This document shows, in pieces, positions 3,163 to 23,305 of a stretch of 39,651 bases of DNA (position 1 is its first letter; each line of letters begins with the position of its first letter). The DNA comes from Escherichia phage MeretOppenheim_Bas102: sequence record PQ850620.1. The stretch is one strand, 5' to 3'. Both the position numbers and the translations under genes were made by a program. The notes beneath the pieces are model-generated. The model did not search any database and was not told where the DNA came from. It was given only the letters and a program-made list of their open reading frames with translations.

Positions 3163-3404
3163 GGTCTTCCTGACCGACTGATGGCTCACCGAGGGATTCA
3201 GCGGTATGATTGCATCACACCACTTCATCCCTATAGAGTCAAGTCCTAAGGTATACCCCCATAAAGAGCCTCTAATGGTCTATCCGTAAGGTCTATACCT
3301 AAAGATAGGCCATCCTATCAGTGTCACCTAAAGAGGGTCTTAGAGAGGGCCTAAGGAGTTCCTAGAGGGTCCTTTAAAATATACCATAAAAATCTGAGTG
3401 ACTA

Positions 3405-6572: not shown

Positions 6573-9224
6573 ATGAACACGATTAACATCGCTAAGAACG
6601 ACTTCTCTGACATCGAACTAGCTGCTATTCCGTTCAATACTCTGGCTGACCATTACGGTGAGCGTTTAGCTCGCGAACAGTTGGCCCTTGAGCATGAGTC
6701 TTACGAAATGGGCGAAGCACGCTTCCGCAAGATGTTTGAGCGTCAGCTTAAAGCTGGTGAGGTTGCGGATAACGCTGCCGCCAAGCCTCTCATTACTACC
6801 CTACTCCCTAAAATGATTGCACGCATCAACGATTGGTTTGAGGAAGTGAAAGCTAAGCGCGGCAAACGCCCGACAGCATTCCAGTTCCTGCAAGAAATCA
6901 AGCCGGAAGCTGTAGCTTATATCACCATTAAGACCACTCTGGCTTGCCTCACTAGCGCAGACAATACAACCGTTCAGGCTGTAGCAAGCGCAATCGGTCG
7001 AGCCATTGAGGATGAGGCTCGCTTCGGTCGCATCCGTGACCTTGAGGCTAAGCACTTCAAGAAAAACGTTGAGGAGCAACTCAACAAGCGCGTAGGGCAC
7101 GTCTACAAGAAAGCATTCATGCAGGTTGTCGAAGCTGACATGCTCTCTAAGGGTCTTTTAGGCGGTGAAGCGTGGTCTTCGTGGCACAAGGAAGACTCTA
7201 TTCACGTAGGTGTGCGCTGCATTGAGATGATCATCGAGTCAACCGGAATGGTCAGCTTGAACCGCCAAAACGCTGGCGTAGTAGGGCAAGACTCTGAGAC
7301 TATCGAACTCACACCGGAATACGCTGAAGCTATCGCAACACGTGCGGGTGCACTGGCTGGTATCTCTCCGATGTTCCAACCTTGTGTAGTTCCTCCCAAG
7401 CCTTGGACTGGCATTACCGGTGGTGGCTATTGGGCTAATGGTCGCCGCCCTCTGGCACTGGTACGTACCCACAGCAAGAAAGCACTGATGCGCTACGAAG
7501 ATGTTTACATGCCTGAGGTGTACAAAGCGATTAACATTGCACAAAACACCGCATGGAAAATCAACAAGAAAGTCCTAGCGGTCGCCAACGTAATCACCAA
7601 GTGGAAGCACTGCCCTGTAGAGGACATCCCAGCGATTGAACGCGAAGAACTCCCGATGAAACCGGAAGACATCGACACGAATCCTGAGGCGCTCACCGCT
7701 TGGAAGCGTGATGCTGCCGCTGTGTACCGCAAGGACAAGGCTCGCAAGTCTCGTCGTATCAGCCTTGAGTTCATGCTTGAGCAAGCCAATAAGTTCGCTA
7801 ACCATAAGGCCATCTGGTTCCCTTACAACATGGACTGGCGCGGTCGTGTTTACGCTGTGTCAATGTTCAATCCGCAAGGTAACGACATGACCAAGGGACT
7901 GCTTACGCTGGCGAAAGGTAAACCAATCGGTAAGGAAGGTTATTACTGGCTGAAAATCCACGGCGCAAACTGTGCGGGTGTCGATAAGGTTCCGTTCCCT
8001 GAGCGCATCAAGTTCATTGAGGAAAACCACGAGAACATCATGGCTTGCGCTAAGTCTCCACTGGAGAACACTTGGTGGGCTGAGCAAGATTCTCCGTTCT
8101 GCTTCCTTGCGTTCTGCTTTGAGTACGCTGGGGTACAGCACCACGGCCTGAGTTATAGCTGCTCTCTTCCGCTGGCGTTCGATGGGTCTTGCTCTGGCAT
8201 TCAGCACTTCTCCGCGATGCTCCGTGATGAGGTAGGTGGTCGCGCTGTTAACTTGCTGCCCAGCGAAACCGTTCAGGACATCTACGGGATTGTCGCTAAG
8301 AAAGTCAACGAGATTTTGCAAGCAGACGTAATCAACGGGACCGACAACGAAGTAGTTACCGTTACCGATGAGAACACTGGTGAAATCTCTGAGAAAGTCA
8401 AGCTGGGCACCAAGGCGCTGGCTGGTCAGTGGTTGGCTTACGGTGTTACTCGTAGTGTGACTAAGCGTTCAGTCATGACGCTGGCTTATGGGTCCAAAGA
8501 GTTCGGATTCCGTCAACAAGTGCTGGAAGATACCATTCAGCCAGCCATTGATTCCGGTAAGGGTCTGATGTTCACTCAACCGAATCAGGCTGCTGGATAC
8601 ATGGCGAAACTGATTTGGGAATCTGTGAGCGTGACGGTGGTAGCTGCTGTGGAAGCTATGAACTGGCTTAAGTCTGCTGCTAAACTGCTGGCTGCTGAGG
8701 TCAAAGATAAGAAGACTGGAGAGATTCTTCGCAAGCGTTGCGCTGTACATTGGGTGACTCCTGATGGGTTCCCAGTGTGGCAAGAATACAAGAAGCCTAT
8801 TCAGACTCGCTTGAACCTGATGTTCCTCGGTCAGTTCCGTCTACAGCCGACCATTAACACCAACAAAGATAGCGAGATTGACGCTCACAAGCAGGAGTCT
8901 GGCATCGCTCCTAACTTTGTACACAGCCAAGACGGTAGTCACCTGCGTAAGACTGTAGTGTGGGCACATGAGAAGTATGGAATCGAGTCTTTTGCACTGA
9001 TTCACGACTCCTTCGGGACCATTCCGGCTGACGCTGCTAACCTGTTCAAAGCTGTTCGGGAAACTATGGTTGACACCTATGAGTCTTATGATGTACTGGC
9101 TGACTTCTATGACCAGTTTGCTGACCAGTTGCATGAGTCTCAATTGGACAAAATGCCAACGCTTCCGGCTAAAGGTAACTTGAATCTACGTGACATCTTA
9201 GAGTCAGACTTCGCGTTCGCGTAA
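6573..9224 (+). CDS. 1: single-subunit DNA-directed RNA polymerase (T7 RNAP, gp1)
   Basis: 883-aa ORF MNTINIAKNDFSDIELAAIPFNTLADHYGERLAREQLALEHESYEMGEARFRKMFERQ...; unmistakable T7 RNA polymerase. Confidence 0.98.
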   Translation: MNTINIAKNDFSDIELAAIPFNTLADHYGERLAREQLALEHESYEMGEARFRKMFERQLKAGEVADNAAAKPLITTLLPKMIARINDWFEEVKAKRGKRPTAFQFLQEIKPEAVAYITIKTTLACLTSADNTTVQAVASAIGRAIEDEARFGRIRDLEAKHFKKNVEEQLNKRVGHVYKKAFMQVVEADMLSKGLLGGEAWSSWHKEDSIHVGVRCIEMIIESTGMVSLNRQNAGVVGQDSETIELTPEYAEAIATRAGALAGISPMFQPCVVPPKPWTGITGGGYWANGRRPLALVRTHSKKALMRYEDVYMPEVYKAINIAQNTAWKINKKVLAVANVITKWKHCPVEDIPAIEREELPMKPEDIDTNPEALTAWKRDAAAVYRKDKARKSRRISLEFMLEQANKFANHKAIWFPYNMDWRGRVYAVSMFNPQGNDMTKGLLTLAKGKPIGKEGYYWLKIHGANCAGVDKVPFPERIKFIEENHENIMACAKSPLENTWWAEQDSPFCFLAFCFEYAGVQHHGLSYSCSLPLAFDGSCSGIQHFSAMLRDEVGGRAVNLLPSETVQDIYGIVAKKVNEILQADVINGTDNEVVTVTDENTGEISEKVKLGTKALAGQWLAYGVTRSVTKRSVMTLAYGSKEFGFRQQVLEDTIQPAIDSGKGLMFTQPNQAAGYMAKLIWESVSVTVVAAVEAMNWLKSAAKLLAAEVKDKKTGEILRKRCAVHWVTPDGFPVWQEYKKPIQTRLNLMFLGQFRLQPTINTNKDSEIDAHKQESGIAPNFVHSQDGSHLRKTVVWAHEKYGIESFALIHDSFGTIPADAANLFKAVRETMVDTYESYDVLADFYDQFADQLHESQLDKMPTLPAKGNLNLRDILESDFAFA

Positions 9225-9791: not shown

Positions 9792-9811
9792 TACGACTCA
9801 GTATAGGGACA
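9789..9811 (+). promoter_or_regulatory. T7 RNAP promoter phi1.3
   Basis: TAATACGACTCAGTATAGGGACA (C-to-G variant at -5 typical of phi1.3). Confidence 0.88.
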
Positions 9812-9848
9812 ATGCTTAAGGTCGCTCATTGAGTGGCCTTAGTCATTT
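9808..9848 (+). promoter_or_regulatory. RNase III processing site R1.3 (predicted)
   Basis: CTTAAGGTCGCTCATTGAGTGGCCTTAGTC after phi1.3. Confidence 0.5.
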
Positions 9849-9869
9849 AACCAATAGGAGATAAACATT

Positions 9870-10892
9870 ATGATGAACATTAAGACTAGCCCATTTAAAG
9901 CCGTGTCTTTCGTAGAGTCCGCCATTAAGAAGGCTCTGGGTAACGCTGGGTATCTTATCGCTGACATCAAGTACGATGGTGTACGTGGGAACATCTGCGT
10001 AGACAATACCGCTAACAGTTGCTGGCTCTCTCGTGTATCTAAAACGATTCCGGCGCTGGAGCACTTAAACGGGTTTGATGTTCGCTGGAAGCGTCTGCTG
10101 AACGATGACCGTTGCTTCTACAAGGATGGCTTCATGCTCGATGGGGAACTCATGGTCAAAGACGTAGACTTCAACACAGGGTCCGGCCTACTGCGTACCA
10201 AATGGACTGACACTAAGAACCAAGAGTTCCACGAAGAGTTATTCGTTGAACCGGTACGTAAGAAAGATAAAGTTCCCTTTAAGCTGCACGCCGGACACCT
10301 TCACGTCAAACTGTACGCTATCCTCCCGCTGCACATCGTGGAGTCTGGAGAAGATTGCGATGTCATGACGTTACTCATGCAGGAACACGTTAAGAACATG
10401 CTGCCTCTGCTACAGGAATACTTCCCTGAAATCGAATGGCAAGCGGCTGAATCTTACGAGGTCTACGATATGGTGGAACTACAGCAACTGTATGAACAGA
10501 AGCGTGAAGAAGGCCATGAGGGTCTCATCGTGAAAGACCCGATGTGCATCTATAAGCGCGGTAAGAAGTCCGGCTGGTGGAAACTTAAGCCTCTTGAGGA
10601 AGCTGACGGCATCATTCAAGGTGTAAACTGGGGAACCGAAGGGCTTGCTAACGAAGGTAAAGTGATCGGCTTTAGTGTCTTGCTAGAAAGCGGGTGTGTA
10701 GTAGATGCTAATAACATCTCACGGGAACTGATGGATGAATTTACAGCTAACGTTAAAGAACATGGCGAGGACTACTACAATGGGTGGGCTTGTCAAATTG
10801 GATTTATGGAGGTAACACCTAATGGAAACCTTAGACATCCGTCCTTCACCTGCTTCCGAGGAACTGAGGACAATCCGAAAGAGAAAGTATAA
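9870..10892 (+). CDS. 1.3: ATP-dependent DNA ligase (gp1.3)
   Basis: 340-aa ORF MMNIKTSPFKAVSFVESAIKKALGNAGYLIADIKYDGVRGN... with adenylation motif KYDG; C-terminal region shorter than T7 ligase as I recall it. Confidence 0.93.
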   Translation: MMNIKTSPFKAVSFVESAIKKALGNAGYLIADIKYDGVRGNICVDNTANSCWLSRVSKTIPALEHLNGFDVRWKRLLNDDRCFYKDGFMLDGELMVKDVDFNTGSGLLRTKWTDTKNQEFHEELFVEPVRKKDKVPFKLHAGHLHVKLYAILPLHIVESGEDCDVMTLLMQEHVKNMLPLLQEYFPEIEWQAAESYEVYDMVELQQLYEQKREEGHEGLIVKDPMCIYKRGKKSGWWKLKPLEEADGIIQGVNWGTEGLANEGKVIGFSVLLESGCVVDANNISRELMDEFTANVKEHGEDYYNGWACQIGFMEVTPNGNLRHPSFTCFRGTEDNPKEKV

Positions 10893-11292
10893 GTATAACC
10901 CTGCGGCTCCTTCGGGAGTCGTTTCTGCCTCTGGTAAACCAATAGGTTACAAGCGGAAAGATGGGTATTGGCTACTTTCTTATGGAGGAAAGCATGTACT
11001 TGCACACAGGGTGGTCTGGATGCTTAACTTCGGTGTCATACCGGAGGGAATGGTGATAGACCACATTAACAGAAACCCTAGCGATAACCGTATAGAGAAT
11101 CTTCGAATAGTAACTCAATCAGCTAACCTAATGAACGTAGGCGTCCGGTCTCATTGTAGGAGTGGAGAGAAGTTTATCTCCCTTGATGTGAGAACCGGAC
11201 GTTTTTCCGTTCGTATCAGGAGAAAATCCTATGGCACATATGGTACTCTCGAAGAGGCTATAGCTGTGCGCGATGCTAATACGACTCACTAA
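10822..11292 (+). CDS. HNH homing endonuclease with C-terminal AP2-like DNA-binding domain, overlapping ligase 3' end
   Basis: 156-aa ORF with HNH motif IDHINRNPSDNRIENLRIVTQSANLMN and AP2-like tail (GRFSVRIRRKSYGTYGTLEEAIAVRDA); own RBS GGAGG at 10808-10812 inside ligase ORF; occupies the position of T7 gene 1.4; true start uncertain. Confidence 0.75.
   Translation: METLDIRPSPASEELRTIRKRKYKYNPAAPSGVVSASGKPIGYKRKDGYWLLSYGGKHVLAHRVVWMLNFGVIPEGMVIDHINRNPSDNRIENLRIVTQSANLMNVGVRSHCRSGEKFISLDVRTGRFSVRIRRKSYGTYGTLEEAIAVRDANTTH
10902..10930 (+). terminator. TE-like early terminator (for host RNAP)
   Basis: hairpin CGGCTCC-TTCG-GGAGTCG followed by TTTCTGCC immediately after the ligase stop; resembles the T7 TE element (GGCTCACCTTCGGGTGGGCCTTTCTGCG) as I recall it. 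Confidence 0.55.
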
Positions 11293-11299
11293 AGGAGGT
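11277..11299 (+). promoter_or_regulatory. T7 RNAP promoter phi1.5
   Basis: TAATACGACTCACTAAAGGAGGT; contains the stop codon of the upstream HNH ORF. Confidence 0.88.
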
Positions 11300-11306
11300 A
11301 CACATC

Positions 11307-11396
11307 ATGATGTACTTAATGCCATTACTCATTGTCGTCATAGGATGCCTTGCGCTCCACTGTAGCGATGACGATATGCCAGATGGTCACGCTTAA
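11307..11396 (+). CDS. 1.5: gp1.5
   Basis: 29-aa ORF MMYLMPLLIVVIGCLALHCSDDDMPDGHA immediately downstream of phi1.5 with RBS AAAGGAGG. Confidence 0.6.
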   Translation: MMYLMPLLIVVIGCLALHCSDDDMPDGHA

Positions 11397-11416
11397 TACG
11401 ACTCACTAAAGGAGAC
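11394..11416 (+). promoter_or_regulatory. T7 RNAP promoter phi1.6
   Basis: TAATACGACTCACTAAAGGAGAC; first three nt are the TAA stop of gene 1.5. Confidence 0.88.
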
Positions 11417-11421
11417 ACTAT

Positions 11422-11682
11422 ATGTTTCGACTTCATTACAACAAAAGCATTAAGAATTTCACGATTCGCCGTGCTGACCGTTCAATCGTATGTGCGAGCG
11501 AGCTCCGAGCTAAGTTACCTCTTATTGGTGACACAGTTCCTCTGGCACCGAGCGTACACATCATTATTACCCGTGGTGACTTTGAGAAAGCAATAGACAA
11601 GAAACGTCCGGTTCTTAGTGTGGCAGTGACCCGCTTCCCGTTCATCCGTCTGTTACTCAAACGAATCAAGGAGGTGTTCTGA
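11422..11682 (+). CDS. 1.6: gp1.6
   Basis: 86-aa [66 protein letters not shown]... downstream of phi1.6. Confidence 0.85.
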
Positions 11683-11910
11683 TGGGCAAAGACATGGTAA
11701 ACCAACCTGCGCATTATACTTCTGGCGGGATTGAGTGCCTTGACGCTATCAGGGCTTCGATGACAGAGGAGGCATTTAAGGGCTTCCTGAAAGGTAACGT
11801 ACTTAAGTATATGTGGCGCTACGAGAAGAAATTTAATCCAACTGAGGACTTAAAGAAAGCTCAGTGGTATTTGAAGCGTCTGGAGGAAGCAAATGAAAAG
11901 GATAAATCAT

Positions 11911-12257
<347 letters not shown>

Positions 12258-12260
<3 letters not shown>

Positions 12261-12280
12261 TACGACTCACTATTAGGGAG
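12258..12280 (+). promoter_or_regulatory. T7 RNAP promoter phi2.5 (A-initiating)
   Basis: TAATACGACTCACTATTAGGGAG with the extra T characteristic of phi2.5; begins with the gene 2 stop codon. Confidence 0.88.
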
Positions 12281-12330
12281 GGAGGACTCCCTTTAAGAAA
12301 CCAAAATGAAACCTAAAGGAGATTAACATT

Positions 12331-13035
12331 ATGGCTAAGAAGATTTTCACCTCTGCGCTGGGTACTGCTGAACCTTACGCTTACATCGCTAAGCCGGACT
12401 ACGGCAACGAAGAGCGTGGCTTTGGGAACCCTCGCGGTGTCTACAAAGTTGACCTGACTATTCCCAACAAAGACCCGCGCTGCCAGCGTATGGTCGATGA
12501 AATCGTGAAGTGCCACGAAGAGGCTTATGCTGCTGCCGTTGAGGAATACGAAGCGAATCCACCTGCGGTAGCTCGTGGTAAGAAACCATTGGAGCCTTAC
12601 GAGGGAGACATGCCGTTCGTAGATAACGGTGACGGTACGACTACCTTTAAGTTTAAGTCCTACGCATCCTATCAAGATAAGAAGACCAAAGAGACCAAGC
12701 ACATCAATCTGGTTGTTGTGGATTCTAAGGGTAAGAAGATTGAGGACGTGCCTATCATCGGTGGCGGCTCTAAGCTGAAAGTTAAATACTCTCTTGTTCC
12801 CTACAAATGGAATAAAGCAGTCGGTGCAAGCGTTAAGCTACAGTTGGAGTCTGTAATGCTGGTCGAACTGGCTTCCTTTGGTGGTGGCGGTGATGGTGAT
12901 TGGGCTGATGAAGTCGAAGAGAACGGCTATGTTGCCTCTGGTTCTGCCAAAGCGAGCAAACCACGCGACGAAGAAAGCTGGGACGAAGACGACGGAGACT
13001 CTTACGAAGAAGAAGACGAAGACGGAGACTTCTAA
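12331..13035 (+). CDS. 2.5: single-stranded DNA-binding protein (gp2.5)
   Basis: 234-aa ORF MAKKIFTSALGTAEPYAYIAKPDYGNEERGFGNPRGVYKVDLT... with acidic C-terminal tail ending DGDF. Confidence 0.95.
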   Translation: MAKKIFTSALGTAEPYAYIAKPDYGNEERGFGNPRGVYKVDLTIPNKDPRCQRMVDEIVKCHEEAYAAAVEEYEANPPAVARGKKPLEPYEGDMPFVDNGDGTTTFKFKSYASYQDKKTKETKHINLVVVDSKGKKIEDVPIIGGGSKLKVKYSLVPYKWNKAVGASVKLQLESVMLVELASFGGGGDGDWADEVEENGYVASGSAKASKPRDEESWDEDDGDSYEEEDEDGDF

Positions 13036-13491
13036 GTGGCTGGCGCATACGCTGCGCGTGGTATCCGAAAGGTCGGGACATTCCGTTCCGGCCTAGAAGA
13101 TAATGTCTCTAAGCAGCTAGAGGGTAAGGGCATTCAGTTCGACTATGAACTGTGGAAAATCCCTTACGTTGTCCCTGCGAGCAACCATATGTATACTCCA
13201 GACTTCCTGCTGCCTAACGGAATCTTTATTGAAACCAAGGGTTTATGGGAGAGTGACGACCGAAAGAAACACTTACTGATTCGCGAACAGTTTCCTGAAC
13301 TGGACATCCGTCTGGTGTTCTCAAGCTCACGCACCAAGCTGTACAAAGGGTCTCCGACCAGTTACGGTGAATGGTGCGAGAAGCACGGCATTCTGTTTGC
13401 TGACAAATTAATTCCTGTAGAATGGCTCAAAGAACCCAAAAAGGAGGTGCCATTTGACAAGCTGAAACAATCGAAGGGAGGAAAGAAATAA
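13036..13491 (+). CDS. 3: endonuclease I, Holliday-junction resolvase (gp3)
   Basis: 151-aa ORF (M)AGAYAARGIRKVGTFRSGLEDNVSKQLEGKGIQFDYELWKIPYVVPASNHMYTPDFLLPNGIFIETKGLWESDDRKKH...; GTG start directly abutting the gene 2.5 stop codon. Confidence 0.92.
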   Translation: MAGAYAARGIRKVGTFRSGLEDNVSKQLEGKGIQFDYELWKIPYVVPASNHMYTPDFLLPNGIFIETKGLWESDDRKKHLLIREQFPELDIRLVFSSSRTKLYKGSPTSYGEWCEKHGILFADKLIPVEWLKEPKKEVPFDKLKQSKGGKK

Positions 13492-13946
13492 TGGCTCGTG
13501 TACAGTTTAAACAACGTGAATCTACTGACGCAATCTTTGTCCACTGCTCGGCTACCAAGCCAAGTCAGAATGTAGGTGTCCGTGAGATTCGCCAGTGGCA
13601 CAAAGAGCAAGGCTGGCTTGATGTGGGGTATCACTTTATCATCAAGCGTGATGGTACAGTAGAGGAAGGCCGAGATGAGATGGCTGTAGGCTCTCACGTT
13701 AAGGGTCATAACCACAACTCCATTGGTGTCTGCCTTGTAGGTGGTATCGACGATAAAGGTAAGTTCGACGCTAACTTTACGCCAGCCCAAATGCAATCCC
13801 TTCGCTCACTGCTTGTCACACTACTGGCTAAGTATGAAGGCGCTGTGCTTCGCGCGCATCATGATGTGGCACCTAAGGCTTGCCCATCGTTCGACCTTAA
13901 GCGTTGGTGGGAGAAGGACGAACTGGTCACTTCTGACCGTGGATAA
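13491..13946 (+). CDS. 3.5: lysozyme / N-acetylmuramoyl-L-alanine amidase, RNAP inhibitor (gp3.5)
   Basis: 151-aa ORF MARVQFKQRESTDAIFVHCSATKPSQNVGVREIRQWHKEQGWLDVGYHFIIKRDGTVEEGRDEMAVGSH... Confidence 0.95.
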   Translation: MARVQFKQRESTDAIFVHCSATKPSQNVGVREIRQWHKEQGWLDVGYHFIIKRDGTVEEGRDEMAVGSHVKGHNHNSIGVCLVGGIDDKGKFDANFTPAQMQSLRSLLVTLLAKYEGAVLRAHHDVAPKACPSFDLKRWWEKDELVTSDRG

Positions 13947-13947
13947 T

Positions 13948-13970
13948 TAATTGAACTCACTAAAGGGAGA
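13948..13970 (+). promoter_or_regulatory. T7 RNAP promoter phi3.8
   Basis: TAATTGAACTCACTAAAGGGAGA, the divergent phi3.8-type sequence, directly upstream of gene 4 here. Confidence 0.85.
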
Positions 13971-14002
13971 CCACAACGGTTTCCCTTTGTTCGCAATGTT
14001 GA

Positions 14003-15736
<1,734 letters not shown>

Positions 15737-15743
<7 letters not shown>

Positions 15744-15759
15744 ACTCACTAAAGGAGCT
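15737..15759 (+). promoter_or_regulatory. T7 RNAP promoter phi4.3
   Basis: TAATTAGACTCACTAAAGGAGCT; its +2 to +6 GGAG serves as RBS for the inserted HNH gene. Confidence 0.8.
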
Positions 15760-15765
15760 AACCAC

Positions 15766-16191
15766 ATGGACACTAACTTAGCGAGATTTGAAATATTCTT
15801 GAAGATTGATGGTGACTGCTGGTTGTTCACTGGTGGAAGGGCGCACTCCTATGGAGTCTTCTGGATGAACGGTAAGAATCACAAGGCACATAGGGCCGCC
15901 TTCGAACTTTATAACGGGAGGAAACCTAATGGCGTTATACTACATTCTTGTGATAATCCTTTGTGCTGCAATCCCGCTCATCTATCTGAGGGAACTCAGC
16001 TTGATAATATGGTGGACATGGTTAGAAAGGGACGCTCATTGAGAGGTACTAAGAATCCAATGTGCAAGTTTACTGATGCGGATGTTAAGTTCATCCGAGA
16101 GTCTACCATGAAGGTCAAGGATTTAGCTGCTTTATTCGGAGTAACCCGCCAAACAATAACTAAATGGAGGAGGCACCAATGTTCAAACTGA
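15766..16191 (+). CDS. free-standing HNH (His-Me finger) endonuclease inserted between promoter phi4.3 and gene 4.3
   Basis: 142-aa ORF MDTNLARFEIFLKIDGDCWLFTGG... with motif HSCDNPLCCNPAHL and C-terminal HTH-like TRQTITKWRR; paralogous to gp7.7 and to the intron ORF; not present at this locus in T7. Confidence 0.8.
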   Translation: MDTNLARFEIFLKIDGDCWLFTGGRAHSYGVFWMNGKNHKAHRAAFELYNGRKPNGVILHSCDNPLCCNPAHLSEGTQLDNMVDMVRKGRSLRGTKNPMCKFTDADVKFIRESTMKVKDLAALFGVTRQTITKWRRHQCSN

Positions 16192-16391
16192 TTAAGAAAT
16201 TAGGCCAACTGCTGGTTCGTATGTACAACGTGGAAGCTAAACGCCTGAACGATGAGGCTCGTAAAGAAGCCACACAGTCACGCGCTCTGGCGATTCGCTC
16301 CAACGAACTGGCTGATAGCGCATCAAATAAAGTTACAGAAGCTGCCCGTGTAGCAAACCAAGCACAACAGCTTTCCAAATTCTTTGAGTAA
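16179..16391 (+). CDS. 4.3: gp4.3
   Basis: 70-aa ORF MFKLIKKLGQLLVRMYNVEAKRLNDEARKEATQSRALAIRSNELADSASNKVTEAARVANQAQQLSKFFE; RBS GGAGGAGG lies inside 3' end of the upstream HNH gene. Confidence 0.85.
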   Translation: MFKLIKKLGQLLVRMYNVEAKRLNDEARKEATQSRALAIRSNELADSASNKVTEAARVANQAQQLSKFFE

Positions 16392-16410
16392 TCAAACAGG
16401 AGAAACCATT

Positions 16411-16680
16411 ATGTCAAACGTAGCTGAAACTATCCGTCTATCCGATACCGCTGACCAGTGGAACCGTCGGGTTCACATCAACGTTCGTAACGGAAAGGCT
16501 ACTATGGTCTACCGTTGGAAGGACTCCAAGTCCTCTAAGAATCACACTCAGCGTATGACGTTGACAGATGAGCAAGCACTGCGTCTGGTCAATGCGCTTA
16601 CCAAAGCTGCCGTGACAGCAATCCATGAAGCTGGTCGCGTCAATGAAGCTATGGCTATCCTCGACAAGATTGATAGCTAA
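16411..16680 (+). CDS. 4.5: gp4.5
   Basis: 89-aa ORF MSNVAETIRLSDTADQWNRRVHINVRNGKATMVYRWKDSKSSKNHTQRMTL... Confidence 0.85.
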   Translation: MSNVAETIRLSDTADQWNRRVHINVRNGKATMVYRWKDSKSSKNHTQRMTLTDEQALRLVNALTKAAVTAIHEAGRVNEAMAILDKIDS

Positions 16681-16684
16681 GAGT

Positions 16685-16722
16685 GGTATACTCAAGGTCG
16701 CCCAAGTGGTGGCCTTCATGAA
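16685..16722 (+). promoter_or_regulatory. RNase III processing site R4.7 (predicted)
   Basis: CTCAAGGTCGCCCAAGTGGTGGCCTTCATG between 4.5 and phi4.7. Confidence 0.5.
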
Positions 16723-16724
16723 TA

Positions 16725-16747
16725 CTATTAGACTCACTATAGGAGGT
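16725..16747 (+). promoter_or_regulatory. T7 RNAP promoter phi4.7
   Basis: CTATTAGACTCACTATAGGAGGT upstream of gene 4.7. Confidence 0.75.
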
Positions 16748-16753
16748 ATTATC

Positions 16754-17161
16754 ATGCGTGACCCTAAAGTTATCCAAGCAGAAATCGCTAAGTTGGAAGC
16801 TGAACTGGAGGACGTTAAGTTCCATGAGGCCAAGACCCGCTCCGCTGTTCACATCTTGAAGAACTTAGGCTGGACTTGGACAAGACAGACTGGCTGGGAG
16901 AAACAAGAAGTTAACAAGCTGAGCCACAAGGTGTTCGATAAAGACACTATGACCCACATCAAGGCTGGTGATTGGGTTAAGGTTGCCATGGGAGTTGTTG
17001 TTGGATACGGCTACGTCCGCTCAGTTAGTGGTAAATATGCACAAGTGTCATACATCACAGGCGTCACTCCACGAGGAGCAATCGTTGCCGATAAGACCAA
17101 CATGATTCATACAGTCTTCTTGACAGTTGTCTCGTATGAAGAGATTGTTAAGTCACGATAA
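16754..17161 (+). CDS. 4.7: gp4.7
   Basis: 135-aa ORF MRDPKVIQAEIAKLEAELEDVKFHEAKTRSAVHILKNLGWTWTRQTGW... downstream of phi4.7. Confidence 0.85.
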   Translation: MRDPKVIQAEIAKLEAELEDVKFHEAKTRSAVHILKNLGWTWTRQTGWEKQEVNKLSHKVFDKDTMTHIKAGDWVKVAMGVVVGYGYVRSVSGKYAQVSYITGVTPRGAIVADKTNMIHTVFLTVVSYEEIVKSR

Positions 17162-17179
17162 TCAATAGGAGAAATCAAT

Positions 17180-19138
17180 ATGATCGTTTCTGACATCGAA
17201 GCTAACGCCCTCTTAGAGAGCGTCACTAAGTTCCACTGCGGGGTTATCTACGACTACTCCACCGCTGAGTACGTAAGCTACCGTCCGAGTGACTTCGGTG
17301 CGTATCTGGATGCGCTGGAAGCCGAGGTTGCACGAGGCGGTCTTATTGTGTTCCACAACGGTCACAAGTATGACGTTCCCGCATTGACCAAACTGGCAAA
17401 GCTACAATTGAACCGTGAGTTCCACCTTCCCCGTGAGAACTGTATCGACACCCTTGTGCTGTCACGCTTGATTCACTCTAACCTGAAAGACACCGATATG
17501 GGTCTTCTGCGTTCCGGTAAGTTGCCCGGTAAACGATTTGGGTCTCACGCTTTGGAGGCGTGGGGTTATCGCTTAGGCGAAATGAAGGGTGAATACAAAG
17601 ACGACTTTAAGCGTATGCTTGAAGAGCAGGGTGAAGAGTACGTTGACGGAATGGAGTGGTGGAACTTCAACGAAGAGATGATGGACTATAACGTTCAGGA
17701 CGTTGTGGTCACTAAGGCTCTACTTGAGAAGCTACTCTCTGACAAACACTACTTCCCTCCTGAGATTGACTTTACGGACGTAGGTTACACTACGTTCTGG
17801 TCAGAATCCCTTGAGGCCGTTGACGTTGAACATCGCGCTGCGTGGCTACTCGCTAAGCAAGAGCGAAATGGATTCCCGTTTGACACGAAAGCAATCGAAG
17901 AGTTGTACGTAGAGTTAGCTGCTCGCCGCTCTGAGTTGCTCCGTAAATTGACCGAAACGTTCGGCTCATGGTATCAACCTAAGGGTGGCACCGAAATGTT
18001 CTGCCATCCGCGAACAGGCAAGCCACTGCCTAAATACCCTCGCATTAAGACACCTAAAGTTGGTGGTATCTTTAAGAAGCCTAAGAACAAGGCACAGCGA
18101 GAGGGCCGTGAGCCTTGCGAACTTGATACCCGCGAGTACGTTGCTGGCGCTCCGTATACTCCAGTTGAGCACGTAGTGTTTAACCCTTCGTCTCGTGACC
18201 ACATCCAGAAGAAACTCCAAGAGGCTGGATGGGTCCCCACGAAGTACACCGATAAGGGTGCTCCTGTGGTGGACGATGAGGTACTCGAAGGAGTACGTGT
18301 AGATGACCCCGAGAAGCAAGCTGCTATCGACCTCATTAAAGAGTACTTGATGATTCAGAAGCGAATCGGACAGTCTGCTGAGGGAGACAAGGCATGGCTC
18401 CGTTACGTTGCCGAGGACGGTAAGATTCATGGTTCTGTTAACCCTAATGGAGCAGTTACGGGTCGTGCGACCCATGCGTTCCCCAACCTTGCGCAAATTC
18501 CGGGTGTACGTTCTCCTTATGGGGAGCAGTGCCGTGCTGCTTTTGGCGCTGAGCATCATTTGGATGGGCTAACTGGTAAGCCTTGGGTTCAGGCAGGTAT
18601 CGATGCATCCGGTCTGGAGCTACGCTGCTTAGCCCACTTTATGGCTCGCTTTGATAACGGTGAGTACGCCCACGAGATTCTTAACGGTGACATCCACACT
18701 AAGAACCAGATGGCTGCTGAACTGCCTACCCGTGATAACGCCAAGACGTTCATCTACGGGTTCCTGTATGGTGCTGGCGATGAGAAGATTGGGCAGATTG
18801 TTGGTGCTGGTAAAGAGCGCGGCAAGGAACTCAAGAAGAAATTCCTTGAGAACACCCCAGCTATTGCAGCACTACGCGAGTCTATCCAACAGACACTTGT
18901 CGAGTCCTCTCAGTGGGTAGCAGGTGAGCAACAAGTCAAGTGGAAACGCCGCTGGATTAAAGGTCTGGATGGTCGTAAGGTACACGTTCGTAGTCCTCAC
19001 GCTGCCTTGAATACCCTGCTCCAATCCGCTGGTGCTCTCATCTGCAAACTGTGGATTATCAAGACCGAAGAGATGCTCGTAGAGAAAGGCTTGAAGCACG
19101 GCTGGGATGGGGACTTTGCGTACATGGCATGGGTGCAT
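17180..19138 (+). CDS. 5: DNA polymerase (gp5), exon 1 encoding residues 1-653
   Basis: Family A polymerase with 3'-5' exonuclease domain ([26 protein letters not shown]...); reading frame ends ...[11 protein letters not shown] then runs into 7 aberrant codons and a stop at 19160-19162 unless spliced. Confidence 0.9.
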
Positions 19139-19739
19139 AAACTATTTCATTGTGCACATTAAATCTGGTGAACTCGGTGAAACCCTAATGGGGCAATACC
19201 GAGCCAAGCCATAGGGAGGATATATGAGAGGCAAGAAGTTAATTCTTGAGGCCACTGAGACTGGCTGTATCATCCCTACGTCACACAAACTTAATGCTGA
19301 TGGTTATTTCAGAAAGAAAACCAATGGCGTCTTGGAGATGTATCACAGAACGGTGTGGAAGGAGCATAATGGAGAAATACCTGAAGGCTCCGAGATAGAC
19401 CATAAGTGTCGCAATAGGGCTTGCTGTAACATAGAGCATTTACAGATGCTTGAAGGTACAGCCCACACTGTTAAGACCAATCGTGAACGCTACGCAGACA
19501 GAAAGGAAACAGCTAGAGAATACTGGCTGGAGACTGGATGTACAGGCCTAGCACTCGGTGAGAAGTTTGGTGTGTCGTTCTCTTCCGCTTGTAAGTGGAT
19601 TAGAGAATGGAAGGCGTAGAGACTATCCGAAAGGAGTAGGGCCGAGGGTGAGACTCCCTCGTAACCCGAAGCGCCAGACAGTCAACTCAAAGACTGATGA
19701 TATAGTCCGACACTCCTAGTAATAGGAGAATACAGAAAG
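19139..19739 (+). mobile_element. group I self-splicing intron (inferred) interrupting gene 5 at motif C
   Basis: 601-nt insertion starting after exon U19138 and ending with G19739; GTGCAC (19152-19157) pairs with exon end GTGCAT (19133-19138) giving P1 with U-G wobble at the splice site; TTTCAT (19146-19151) complements exon 2 start ATGAAA (19741-19746) = P10; GACTAT (19621-19626)/ATAGTC (19702-19707) candidate P7; exon frame restored exactly. Confidence 0.8.
19224..19619 (+). CDS. intron-encoded HNH (His-Me finger) homing endonuclease
   Basis: 131-aa ORF MRGKKLILEATETGCIIPTSHKLNADGYFRKK... with motif EIDHKCRNRACCNIEHL, own RBS GGGAGGA 4 nt upstream; lies wholly inside the inferred intron. 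Confidence 0.8.
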   Translation: MRGKKLILEATETGCIIPTSHKLNADGYFRKKTNGVLEMYHRTVWKEHNGEIPEGSEIDHKCRNRACCNIEHLQMLEGTAHTVKTNRERYADRKETAREYWLETGCTGLALGEKFGVSFSSACKWIREWKA

Positions 19740-19895
19740 GATGAAATCCAAGTAGGTTGCCGTACCGAAGAGATTGCTCAGGTTGTCATTGAGACTGCAC
19801 AAGAGGCAATGCGCTGGGTAGGAGACCACTGGAACTTCCGGTGTCTTCTGGATACCGAAGGTAAGATGGGTCCTAATTGGGCCGTATGTCACTGA
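19740..19895 (+). CDS. 5: DNA polymerase (gp5), exon 2 encoding residues 654-704
   Basis: in-frame continuation DEIQVGCRTEEIAQVVIETAQEAMRWVGDHWNFRCLLDTEGKMGPNWAVCH matching the conserved C-terminus of T7 DNA polymerase; spliced product 704 aa. Confidence 0.88.
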   Translation, partial: DEIQVGCRTEEIAQVVIETAQEAMRWVGDHWNFRCLLDTEGKMGPNWAVCH

Positions 19896-19914
19896 TTCTA
19901 TAGGAGAAATTATT

Positions 19915-20211
19915 ATGGCTATGACAAAGAAATTTAAAGTGTCCTTTGATGTTACCCTTAAGCTGGACAGCGAGACCGAAGAACTGATGCGAGAAAAGAT
20001 TCTGGACTTAGCACATCGTGCTGGTGCTGGTAAGGAGGTTGCGCCTATGGACCGAGAGTTGCTCGTTCAGGCTCTGACCAATGGGCCTGATGGCGCTGCT
20101 GCATTCGCTGTACGCCAAGGTCTACGTAAGGCTATCAAAGAGTTGTTCGAAGAGATGAGTGATGCGTCAATGTTCAAAGCGTCTCCTGCAACTGTACGGG
20201 AGGTGTTCTGA
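19915..20211 (+). CDS. 5.5: gp5.5 (H-NS binding protein in T7)
   Basis: 98-aa ORF MAMTKKFKVSFDVTLKLDSETEELMREKILDLAHRAGAGKEV... Confidence 0.88.
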   Translation: MAMTKKFKVSFDVTLKLDSETEELMREKILDLAHRAGAGKEVAPMDRELLVQALTNGPDGAAAFAVRQGLRKAIKELFEEMSDASMFKASPATVREVF

Positions 20212-20420
20212 TGTCTGACTATCTGAAAGTGCTGCAAGCAATCAAAAGTTGCCCTAAGACTTTCCAGTCCAACTATGTACGGAACAATGCGAGCCTTGTA
20301 GCGGAGGCCGCTTCCCGTGGTCACATCTCGTGTCTGACCACAAGTGGACGTAACGGTGGCGCTTGGGAAATTACTGCTTCCGGTACTCGCTTTCTGAAAC
20401 GAATGGGAGGTTGTGTATAA
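20211..20420 (+). CDS. 5.7: gp5.7
   Basis: 69-aa ORF MSDYLKVLQAIKSCPKTFQSNYVRNNASLVAEAASRGHISCLTTSGRNGGAWEITASGTRFLKRMGGCV; TGATG overlap with 5.5. Confidence 0.88.
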   Translation: MSDYLKVLQAIKSCPKTFQSNYVRNNASLVAEAASRGHISCLTTSGRNGGAWEITASGTRFLKRMGGCV

Positions 20421-20578
20421 TGTCTCGTGACCTTGTGACTATTCCACGCGATGTGTGGAACGATATGCAGGGCTACATCGACTCTCTGGAACGTGAGAAC
20501 GATAGCCTTAAGAACCAACTAATGGAAGCTGACGAATACGTAGCGGAACTAGAGGAGAAACTTAATGGCGCTTCTTGA
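20420..20578 (+). CDS. 5.9: gp5.9 (RecBCD inhibitor in T7)
   Basis: 52-aa acidic ORF MSRDLVTIPRDVWNDMQGYIDSLERENDSLKNQLMEADEYVAELEEKLNGAS; TAATG overlap with 5.7. Confidence 0.85.
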   Translation: MSRDLVTIPRDVWNDMQGYIDSLERENDSLKNQLMEADEYVAELEEKLNGAS

Positions 20579-21467
20579 CCTTAAACAATTCTACGAGTTA
20601 CGTGAAGGCTGTGATGACAAGGGTATCCTCGTGATGGACGGCGACTGGCTGGTCTTCCAAGCGATGAGTGCTGCTGAGTTTGATGCATCATGGGAGGAAG
20701 AGATTTGGCACCGCTGCTGCGACCACGCCAAGGCCCGTCAGATTCTTGAGGATTCCATCAAGTCCTACGAGACCCGCAAGAAGGCTTGGGTAGGTGCCCC
20801 GATTGTCCTTGCGTTCACCGATAGCGTTAACTGGCGTAAAGAACTGGTTGACCAGAACTACAAGGCTAACCGTAAGGCCACTAAGAAACCTGTAGGTTAC
20901 TTTGAGTTCCTTGATGCTCTCTTTGAGCGCGAAGAGTTCTATTGCATCCGTGAGCCTATGCTTGAGGGTGATGACGTTATGGGAGTTATTGCTTCCAATC
21001 CGTCTGCCTTCGGTGCTCGTAAGGCCGTAATCATCTCGTGCGATAAGGACTTTAAGACCATCCCTAACTGTGATTTCCTGTGGTGTACCACTGGTAACAT
21101 CCTTACTCAGACAGAAGAGTCCGCTGACTGGTGGCACCTCTTCCAGACAATAAAAGGTGACATCACCGATGGTTACTCAGGGATTGCGGGGTGGGGTGAT
21201 ACCGCCGAGGAGTTCTTGAATAATCCGTTCATTACCGAGCCTAAAACGTCTGTGCTTAAGTCTGGAAAGAACAAAGGCCAAGAGGTTACTAAATGGGTTA
21301 AACGCGACCCTGAGCCTCATGAGACGCTTTGGGACTGCATTAAGTCCATCGGTGCGAAGGCTGGTATGACCGAAGAGGATATTATCAAACAGGGCCAAAT
21401 GGCTCGCATCCTACGGTTCAACGAGTACAACTTTATTGACAAGGAGATTTACCTGTGGAGACCGTAG
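20565..21467 (+). CDS. 6: 5'-3' exonuclease (gp6)
   Basis: 300-aa ORF MALLDLKQFYELREGCDDKGILVMDGDWLVFQAMSAAEF... FEN/PIN-like exonuclease. Confidence 0.95.
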   Translation: MALLDLKQFYELREGCDDKGILVMDGDWLVFQAMSAAEFDASWEEEIWHRCCDHAKARQILEDSIKSYETRKKAWVGAPIVLAFTDSVNWRKELVDQNYKANRKATKKPVGYFEFLDALFEREEFYCIREPMLEGDDVMGVIASNPSAFGARKAVIISCDKDFKTIPNCDFLWCTTGNILTQTEESADWWHLFQTIKGDITDGYSGIAGWGDTAEEFLNNPFITEPKTSVLKSGKNKGQEVTKWVKRDPEPHETLWDCIKSIGAKAGMTEEDIIKQGQMARILRFNEYNFIDKEIYLWRP

Positions 21468-21568
21468 CGTATATTGGCATTGGTCTTTGTGGTCTCGGAG
21501 TGTGCCTCATTTCGTTGGGCCTTTGGGACTTAGCCCGAATAATCAAGTCGTTACACGACACTAAGTGA
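21455..21568 (+). CDS. 6.3: gp6.3 small protein
   Basis: 37-aa ORF from GTG overlapping 13 nt of gene 6 end, (M)ETVAYIGIGLCGLGVCLISLGLWDLARIIKSLHDTK; same size and overlap as I recall for T7 gene 6.3. Confidence 0.5.
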   Translation: METVAYIGIGLCGLGVCLISLGLWDLARIIKSLHDTK

Positions 21569-21632
21569 TAAACTCAAGGTCCCTAAATTAATACGACTCA
21601 CTATAGGGAGATAGGGGCCTTTATGATTATTA
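21566..21632 (+). promoter_or_regulatory. RNase III processing site R6.5 (predicted, spans phi6.5)
   Basis: AACTCAAGGTCC...GGGGCCTTTATGATTATT flanking the phi6.5 promoter. Confidence 0.45.
21589..21611 (+). promoter_or_regulatory. T7 RNAP promoter phi6.5
   Basis: exact consensus TAATACGACTCACTATAGGGAGA. Confidence 0.9.
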
Positions 21633-22912: not shown

Positions 22913-23305
22913 ATGGAGAATTGTATTGAGTGGACTAAAGGTACTAATCAGAAAGGTTATGGACGTAAGTGGGTGAACGGTAAACTGGTGTCTGCACATC
23001 GTCACGCTTACGAAGAAGTTCATGGTCCAATCCCACATGGTCTTGTTGTAATGCACCTCTGTGACAATCCTCGATGTTATAATGTGGAGCACTTGACTCT
23101 TGGGACACATGCGGACAATTCAGATGATAAAGTTCGGAAAGGTAGACAAGCCAGAGGAGAAACTCTCAGCAAGAAGCTAACAGCGAGCGACGTTTTGGAA
23201 ATCCGTAGCTTGACACTACCACACACCGAGATAGCCAAGATGTACGGTGTAAGTCAATCAACTATAACTCGCATAATTAGACGAGATACATGGAGGCATA
23301 TCTAA
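22913..23305 (+). CDS. 7.7: gp7.7 HNH (His-Me finger) homing-endonuclease-like protein
   Basis: 130-aa ORF MENCIEWTKGTNQKGYGRKWVNGKLVSAHRHAYEEVHGPIPHGLVVMHLCDNPRCYNVEHL...; canonical T7 position between 7.3 and portal gene. Confidence 0.85.
   Translation: MENCIEWTKGTNQKGYGRKWVNGKLVSAHRHAYEEVHGPIPHGLVVMHLCDNPRCYNVEHLTLGTHADNSDDKVRKGRQARGETLSKKLTASDVLEIRSLTLPHTEIAKMYGVSQSTITRIIRRDTWRHI

Follow-up and report, generated by a model that had tools for sequence, protein, structure and literature searches.

In the window, i.e. the whole stretch of 39,651 nt of Escherichia phage MeretOppenheim_Bas102 (PQ850620.1) that was analysed, the DNA polymerase gene 5 is split by a group I intron, and this intron contains an open reading frame for an I-TslI-type HNH homing endonuclease. 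The parts of gene 5 and of the intron described here are located on the plus strand. The frame of gene 5 starts at 17180 and reaches a stop codon at 19162 inside the intron, so that the list of open reading frames contains it as an ORF from 17180 to 19162. According to the splice reconstruction, exon 1 (17180-19138) comprises codons 1-653 and ends with GTG CAT (Val652-His653), while exon 2 (19740-19895) comprises codons 654-704 and the stop codon and starts with GAT GAA ATC (Asp654-Glu655-Ile656, motif C). Joining 17180-19138 to 19740-19895 yields a polymerase of 704 aa, of which 700 are identical to T7 gp5, and the splice junction GTGCAT|GATGAA is placed between His653 and Asp654 of motif C. 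The 601 nt from 19139 to 19739 behave as an intron, because their removal restores the gene 5 frame exactly. Asp654 of T7 corresponds to Klenow Asp882.

The intron (19139-19739) was matched to the Rfam family RF00028 (Intron_gpI). With an E-value threshold, the match covered the region 19129-19729 and the complete model from position 1 to 253, with 45 bits and an E-value of 4e-10 at a gathering score of 50 for this family; comparison of the whole window with Rfam at gathering thresholds gave no match. The score of the intron lies under the gathering threshold because the ORF, which is looped out of the P6 region, represents a single large insertion of 420 nt. The internal guide sequence GTGCAC (19152-19157) was located by the cmscan alignment and by minimum free energy (MFE) folds and forms P1 with the end of exon 1, GTGCAT. 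This GUGCAU + GUGCAC helix has the canonical U-G wobble at the 5′ splice site. In the cmscan alignment, the 3′ half of the ribozyme (P3′, P8 and P9 region) extends from 19620 to 19739, where the last base of the intron is the terminal G. Thermodynamic folds of the core without the ORF recovered P1, P3, P4/P5, P8 and P9, and exon 1 ends with TGCAT in all intron-bearing alleles that were compared.

The endonuclease gene and its product

The ORF extends from 19224 to 19619, starts with ATG and encodes 131 aa followed by a stop codon; it lies wholly within the intron, as the preliminary description had proposed. A profile search for HNH domains, which had been suggested there as well, resulted in a match of residues 40-75 to Pfam HNH_3 (PF13392) with 56.3 bits at a cut-off of 24.8 and an E-value of 2.4e-15. 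The protein was matched by PHROG 6254 'HNH endonuclease' (E 5.9e-47), and weak Pfam matches were obtained to the His-Me zinc-loop family and, at the C-terminus, to helix-turn-helix families, while the comparison with NCBIfam gave no match. The His-Me finger signature noticed earlier in this ORF was recovered as the HNH core EIDHKCRNRACCNIEHL (19392-19442, residues 57-73), which includes Asp59-His60, Asn69 and His72 and lies within the part of the protein that is matched by HNH_3. D59-H60, N69, H72 and H81 are all present in the protein; E57, H60, R65, N69, H72 and L73 are invariant across 50 homologues, and H60, N69, H72 and H81 are invariant both in these 50 and in 121 homologues. By analogy with characterized enzymes of this type, D59-H60 would provide the general base, and the asparagine and the distal histidine would be catalytic or metal-binding.

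The AlphaFold model, which was computed with 50 homologues, has a mean pLDDT of 87 and predicts the beta-beta-alpha-metal fold that defines HNH / His-Me finger nucleases. This predicted fold is closest to that of I-HmuI from the DNA polymerase intron of phage SPO1 (PDB 1U3E), although comparison of the ORF protein with the PDB revealed no sequence-level similarity to I-HmuI. The latter enzyme is also larger (174 aa), and its intron is inserted at polymerase site 674, in contrast to site 881 here (PMC3428280). A helix-turn-helix module for DNA binding is encoded at 19545-19613 (residues about 108-130), and the architecture of the protein is an N-terminal His-Me nuclease combined with a C-terminal DNA-binding helix-turn-helix.

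The dN/dS ratio of the ORF is 0.05-0.11 (about 0.07) against diverged alleles at dS >1, and strong purifying selection of this kind argues, on the basis of sequence comparison, for a functional protein. In nine of nine other phage loci that were inspected the ORF is intact, with a length of 131 aa in eight of them and of 139 aa in Aeromonas phage PT2. The Pfam HNH_3 score, the match to PHROG 6254 and the dN/dS of about 0.07 place the ORF far from a chance reading frame.

In the cluster look-up, the ORF protein was identical at 128 of 131 positions (98%) to I-TslI [Phage PhiI] (AAV53690.1). The three substitutions between the window and PhiI are E51D, E54D and S56F, two of which are conservative. 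A DNA polymerase intron of 601 nt with a 131-aa HNH ORF named I-TslI has been described for the phages PhiI and W31 (PMC1995217), and these introns are referred to as the first reported in T7-like enteric phages (PMC3428280). Their position is given as polymerase site 881 in E. coli Pol I numbering, after the histidine codon of motif C, with the endonuclease encoded in P6a (PMC3428280), and they have been reported to be self-splicing in vitro (Bonocora and Shub 2004, as cited in PMC3428280). The length of the protein, the length of the intron, the host gene and the insertion point in PhiI and W31 (AAV53690.1, AY769989, AY769990) are therefore all the same as in the window. The host differs, being here a T7-type phage with exact T7 promoters which is about 92% identical to the nearest deposited genomes. 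I-TslI is classified as a nicking homing enzyme (PMC8136825, PMC8845596) with a 9-bp core site (PMC8136825), and metal-dependent DNA cleavage is credited to I-TslI of PhiI in papers citing Bonocora and Shub 2009 (PMC8845596, PMC8136825). The intron and its endonuclease are hence an already known mobile element, characterized in PhiI and W31. With a probability of about 0.9, the ORF is an allele of I-TslI, i.e. an HNH homing endonuclease encoded in a group I intron between the His and Asp codons of motif C. The preliminary description of the ORF as an intron-encoded HNH homing endonuclease with its own ribosome binding site agrees with this assignment.

Transcription and translation of the intron ORF

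Promoters of the T7 consensus type (up to 3 mismatches) were found at 2837, 3803, 9233, 9303, 9789, 21589 and beyond. None is present from 9811 to 21589 at this threshold and thus none in or near the intron, while six perfect T7 consensus promoters are located elsewhere in the window. The ORF is therefore transcribed within the gene 5 precursor and relies on its own ribosome binding site. One candidate for a phage promoter within the intron, CCATAGGGAGGA, resembles the 3′ part of the T7 promoter and was rejected, as it gave no match with up to 3 mismatches; sigma-70-like matches in the ORF were no better than those in shuffled sequence.

The Shine-Dalgarno motif GGGAGGA is located at 19214-19220 and is followed by TAT and the ATG start codon, which corresponds to a spacer of 3 nt, or of 4 nt when counted from the GGAGG core. 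The preliminary description had recognized this motif correctly and had placed it four nucleotides before the ATG, a distance that holds for the GGAGG core and not for GGGAGGA as a whole. Of 21 distinct sequences in the list, 19 have a motif of the AGGAG or GGAGG type 1-9 nt before the start codon (L031 and L035 being unreadable).

A candidate partner of the Shine-Dalgarno sequence, GTATCATCCCTA, was found at 19267-19278 within codons 15-19, and the MFE structure of the full intron pairs it with 19212-19223. The duplex between 19212-19223 and 19267-19278 has a free energy of -14.7 kcal/mol, and the pairing ranks between first and third of 122 windows in the enterobacterial and ECBP2-type clades. 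In K1F, an A-U pair of the Shine-Dalgarno pairing is replaced by G-C through a compensatory change, and the pairing is re-registered in the ECBP2-type introns. Over the 19 distinct relatives in which it was tested, the pairing was found in some clades only and was missing in several metagenomic ones, and for this reason we infer the hairpin only tentatively. By analogy with other intron endonucleases, the pairing with codons 15-19 is a possible translational brake. A second candidate partner of the Shine-Dalgarno sequence is located towards the 3′ end of the ORF, around 19569-19592 (-16.3 kcal/mol), and is not present in all relatives.

Relatives of the intron and of the endonuclease

The 701-nt region searched had full-length matches in at least 40 records of the phage collection, and a search with the 205-nt ribozyme core retrieved the same 40 records, with spans of about 593-620 nt. 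As each span amounts to about 600 nt, all 40 records carry the ORF, and in this search of the phage collection with the 205-nt core no ORF-less copy of the intron was detected among the 40 full-length matches. The carriers include Teseptimavirus (13a, JeanTinguely), Teetrevirus (Sekstaphage-1, VSG32), Kayfunavirus (K1F), Yersinia, Salmonella and Klebsiella phages and an Aeromonas phage. In the unrelated phage ECBP2 (Suseptimavirus, Gordonclarkvirinae), the polymerase gene is split by a related intron with a 131-aa HNH ORF. The intron is thus found at one and the same His|Asp codon junction in four lineages of Autographiviridae and in ECBP2. In the records of 13a, K1F and JeanTinguely, a joined gene 5 CDS with an internal endonuclease is already annotated.

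In comparison to K1F, the ribozyme halves are 88-94% identical, the ORF 74% and the gene 5 exons 54-65%, and a related case is the Ro45lw-type locus, in which the protein of exon 1 is 54% identical. The 3′ half of the ribozyme is 94-100% identical to that of other phages even where the exons are only about 60% identical. A ribozyme that is closer between genomes than the gene harbouring it is the pattern expected of an element that moves between genomes. In comparison to JeanTinguely and 13a, the ORF is 81% identical at the DNA level (dS about 1.2), the ribozyme halves 96-97% and the exons about 95%. To judge from these identities, the ORF looks like an older cassette that has been exchanged within a constant intron. 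A joint reading, in which the ORF would be an exchangeable cassette in a near-constant ribozyme, the Shine-Dalgarno hairpin would gate its translation and the serine at residue 56 (see below) could alter the activity of the enzyme, is speculative and, taken as a whole, somewhat unlikely.

In Citrobacter phage NS1 (MN715150.2, 877-1479), the intron and the ORF are present, but no polymerase exon 2 follows the 3′ splice site. The ribozyme of NS1 has extra changes and the record starts at this place, so that faulty assembly or a rearrangement of the copy may account for it.

The slot between genes 5 and 5.5 is empty in the window, in line with the preliminary description: the 19 nt (19896-19914) from the end of gene 5 at 19895 to the start of the gene 5.5 homologue at 19915 contain no gene. 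The further assumption that gene 5.3 of T7, which occupies this slot, is HNH-like proved to be wrong. T7 gp5.3 (2185-2541 of the T7 sequence, L001) matches the PD-(D/E)XK family PF11645 with an E-value of 1.1e-10 and PHROG 5018, which is unrelated to PHROG 6254. It gave no HNH match in Pfam, and BLASTP against the ORF resulted in an E-value of only 4.2. T7 gp5.3 is probably also a nuclease, but it belongs to a family unrelated to the ORF, and for this reason the empty 5.3 slot is not evidence of a relocation of the gene.

The alignment to T3 gp5.3, which had been proposed in addition, led to a true free-standing homologue. This protein is encoded directly downstream of the uninterrupted gene 5 of T3, and thus beside the target gene of the intron enzyme, and it matches HNH_3 with an E-value of 4.6e-19. 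It is 48% identical to the ORF over 95 residues, including the EIDH.C.NR.CCN.EHL core, and differs by its length of 101 aa and by the lack of the C-terminal helix-turn-helix. Two other HNH genes of the window, the one at 15766 and gene 7.7, had been named as sharing the His-Me finger signature of the ORF, and both indeed encode HNH_3 proteins with a helix-turn-helix. The gene at 15766-16191 is free-standing just after the primase/helicase gene (14018-15718), with 25% identity to the ORF, and the likewise free-standing 7.7 homologue at 22913-23305 is 33% identical to it.

When IMG/VR was scanned with the family alignment, 80 loci were obtained. In 29 of these the endonuclease gene is located between sequences homologous to polymerase exons 1 and 2, with spacings of about 85 nt on the 5′ side and of about 105-125 nt on the 3′ side (52-61 nt in three loci), and in 18 it comes directly after a polymerase gene that is uninterrupted; the remaining classified loci were put in either class from spacing alone. 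An ORF-less intron beside a free-standing endonuclease gene was found in none of the 80 loci. In a neighbour-joining tree, computed without support values, the intron-embedded forms make up one derived cluster within a grade formed by free-standing members, T3 gp5.3 among them. One endonuclease gene (L049, IMGVR_UViG_3300045988_046644, about 2501-2917) is free-standing after an uninterrupted polymerase gene, yet is placed among the intron-embedded forms; a second relocation from one position to the other or a tree artefact may explain this placement.

[quoted passage not shown] The occurrence of both layouts of one endonuclease family beside one polymerase gene adds modest support to this model. 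The earlier proposal that the endonuclease has moved into the intron fits both the model and the survey of relatives, whereas the argument from T7 gp5.3 that was given for it does not hold.

Homing, alternative explanations and genome context

In the proposed mechanism, the intron is transcribed within the gene 5 message, and the ORF, which occupies a peripheral ribozyme loop, is equipped with its own Shine-Dalgarno sequence. Translation is probably limited by the short spacer and by the pairing of the Shine-Dalgarno sequence with codons 15-19, which would spare the folding of the ribozyme from interference by ribosomes. During a mixed infection, the enzyme would nick gene 5 of a related phage that lacks the intron, at the place of insertion or close to it, in a site with a 9-bp core, as the literature on the PhiI enzyme suggests. 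Through repair from the intron-bearing genome, the cut allele would then acquire the intron together with the ORF and adjoining exon sequence, as described for homing in general. The phage's own gene would be protected because the intron splits the target site. By analogy with the PhiI enzyme, the motif C region of intron-less gene 5 is supported as the predicted target of the ORF protein. At the insertion site, the intron-less gene 5 reads GGGTACAT|GATGAAATC in T7 and GGATACAC|GACGAAATT in T3 (L002, around 3293-3340). The differences between the T3 and T7 sites are mostly synonymous, which would be expected if T3 shields its own site from its endonuclease.

Three other explanations were weighed against the assignment to I-TslI. 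The records of Sekstaphage-1, VSG32 and ECBP2 contain separate 'DNA polymerase', 'HNH endonuclease' and 'hypothetical protein' genes, as if there were no intron and gene 5 consisted of two genes for two polypeptides with an independent HNH gene between them. Such an arrangement would part the catalytic Asp654 of motif C from the rest of the palm, and it is opposed by the full-length match to the group I covariance model, by the canonical splice-site features, by the exact restoration of the 704-aa frame and by the joined gene 5 CDS annotated for 13a, K1F and JeanTinguely; we consider it extremely improbable. For annotation, gene 5 should be given as a joined CDS and the ORF be named an I-TslI-type endonuclease, and T7 gp5.3 should not be termed an HNH protein. 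Given the intron, the enzyme could nevertheless be in decay. Residue 56 is a serine (codon TCC at 19389-19391) directly before the Glu-Ile-Asp-His strand, whereas in 121 family members this residue is Tyr in 78 and Phe in 29 cases (together 107), His in seven and Ser in two, with Phe in the nearest relatives and in I-TslI of PhiI. Ser56 is the sole peculiarity of the ORF protein of the window and, as far as the sequence goes, could weaken the enzyme. This private F/Y56S change adjoins the catalytic strand and affects a residue that is aromatic in 107 of 121 relatives; it would suit an intron fixed in its lineage with an inactive or crippled enzyme and the ORF as a passenger, and degeneration is described as a common end of the life cycles of homing endonucleases (PMC3984707). 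It is, however, unlikely that the endonuclease is decaying, since the ORF is full length, every invariant residue is kept, only three differences from the PhiI enzyme exist (two of them conservative), residue 56 is likewise Ser in one further family member and His in seven, and the family overall is under strong purifying selection.

An active enzyme might also have been selected mainly for a role other than homing, either for excluding the markers of rival phages in mixed infections or as a maturase. The strong and long-lasting purifying selection (dS >1, dN/dS about 0.07) is compatible with such a role, the presence of the intron in at least 40 records would leave fewer chances for pure homing, and free-standing relatives persist beside intron-less polymerase genes. 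On the other hand, the exclusion of markers follows from the same mechanism of cleavage and repair and is not a different one, no evidence of a maturase was found, and the introns of PhiI and W31 have been reported to splice by themselves in vitro (PMC3428280), so that a main role apart from homing appears quite improbable. The identification as an allele of I-TslI encoded by a mobile group I intron is therefore preferred.

With regard to the genome as a whole, the window shows a T7-type genome in circularly permuted form. The ORF at 995-2755 (586 aa) probably encodes the large terminase gp19, judged from its length and from the terminase that matching records annotate, a perfect T7 promoter is present at 2837, and the gene for an RNA polymerase of 883 aa is located at 6573-9224. 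The identity of about 92% to the nearest deposited genomes applies to positions 1-25000. The region comprising most of gene 5 and the intron (17600-19895) is 94-100% identical to the Teetrevirus phages Sekstaphage-1 and VSG32, and immediately outside of it the identity to these two phages falls to 8-65%, which represents a recombination mosaic centred on gene 5.
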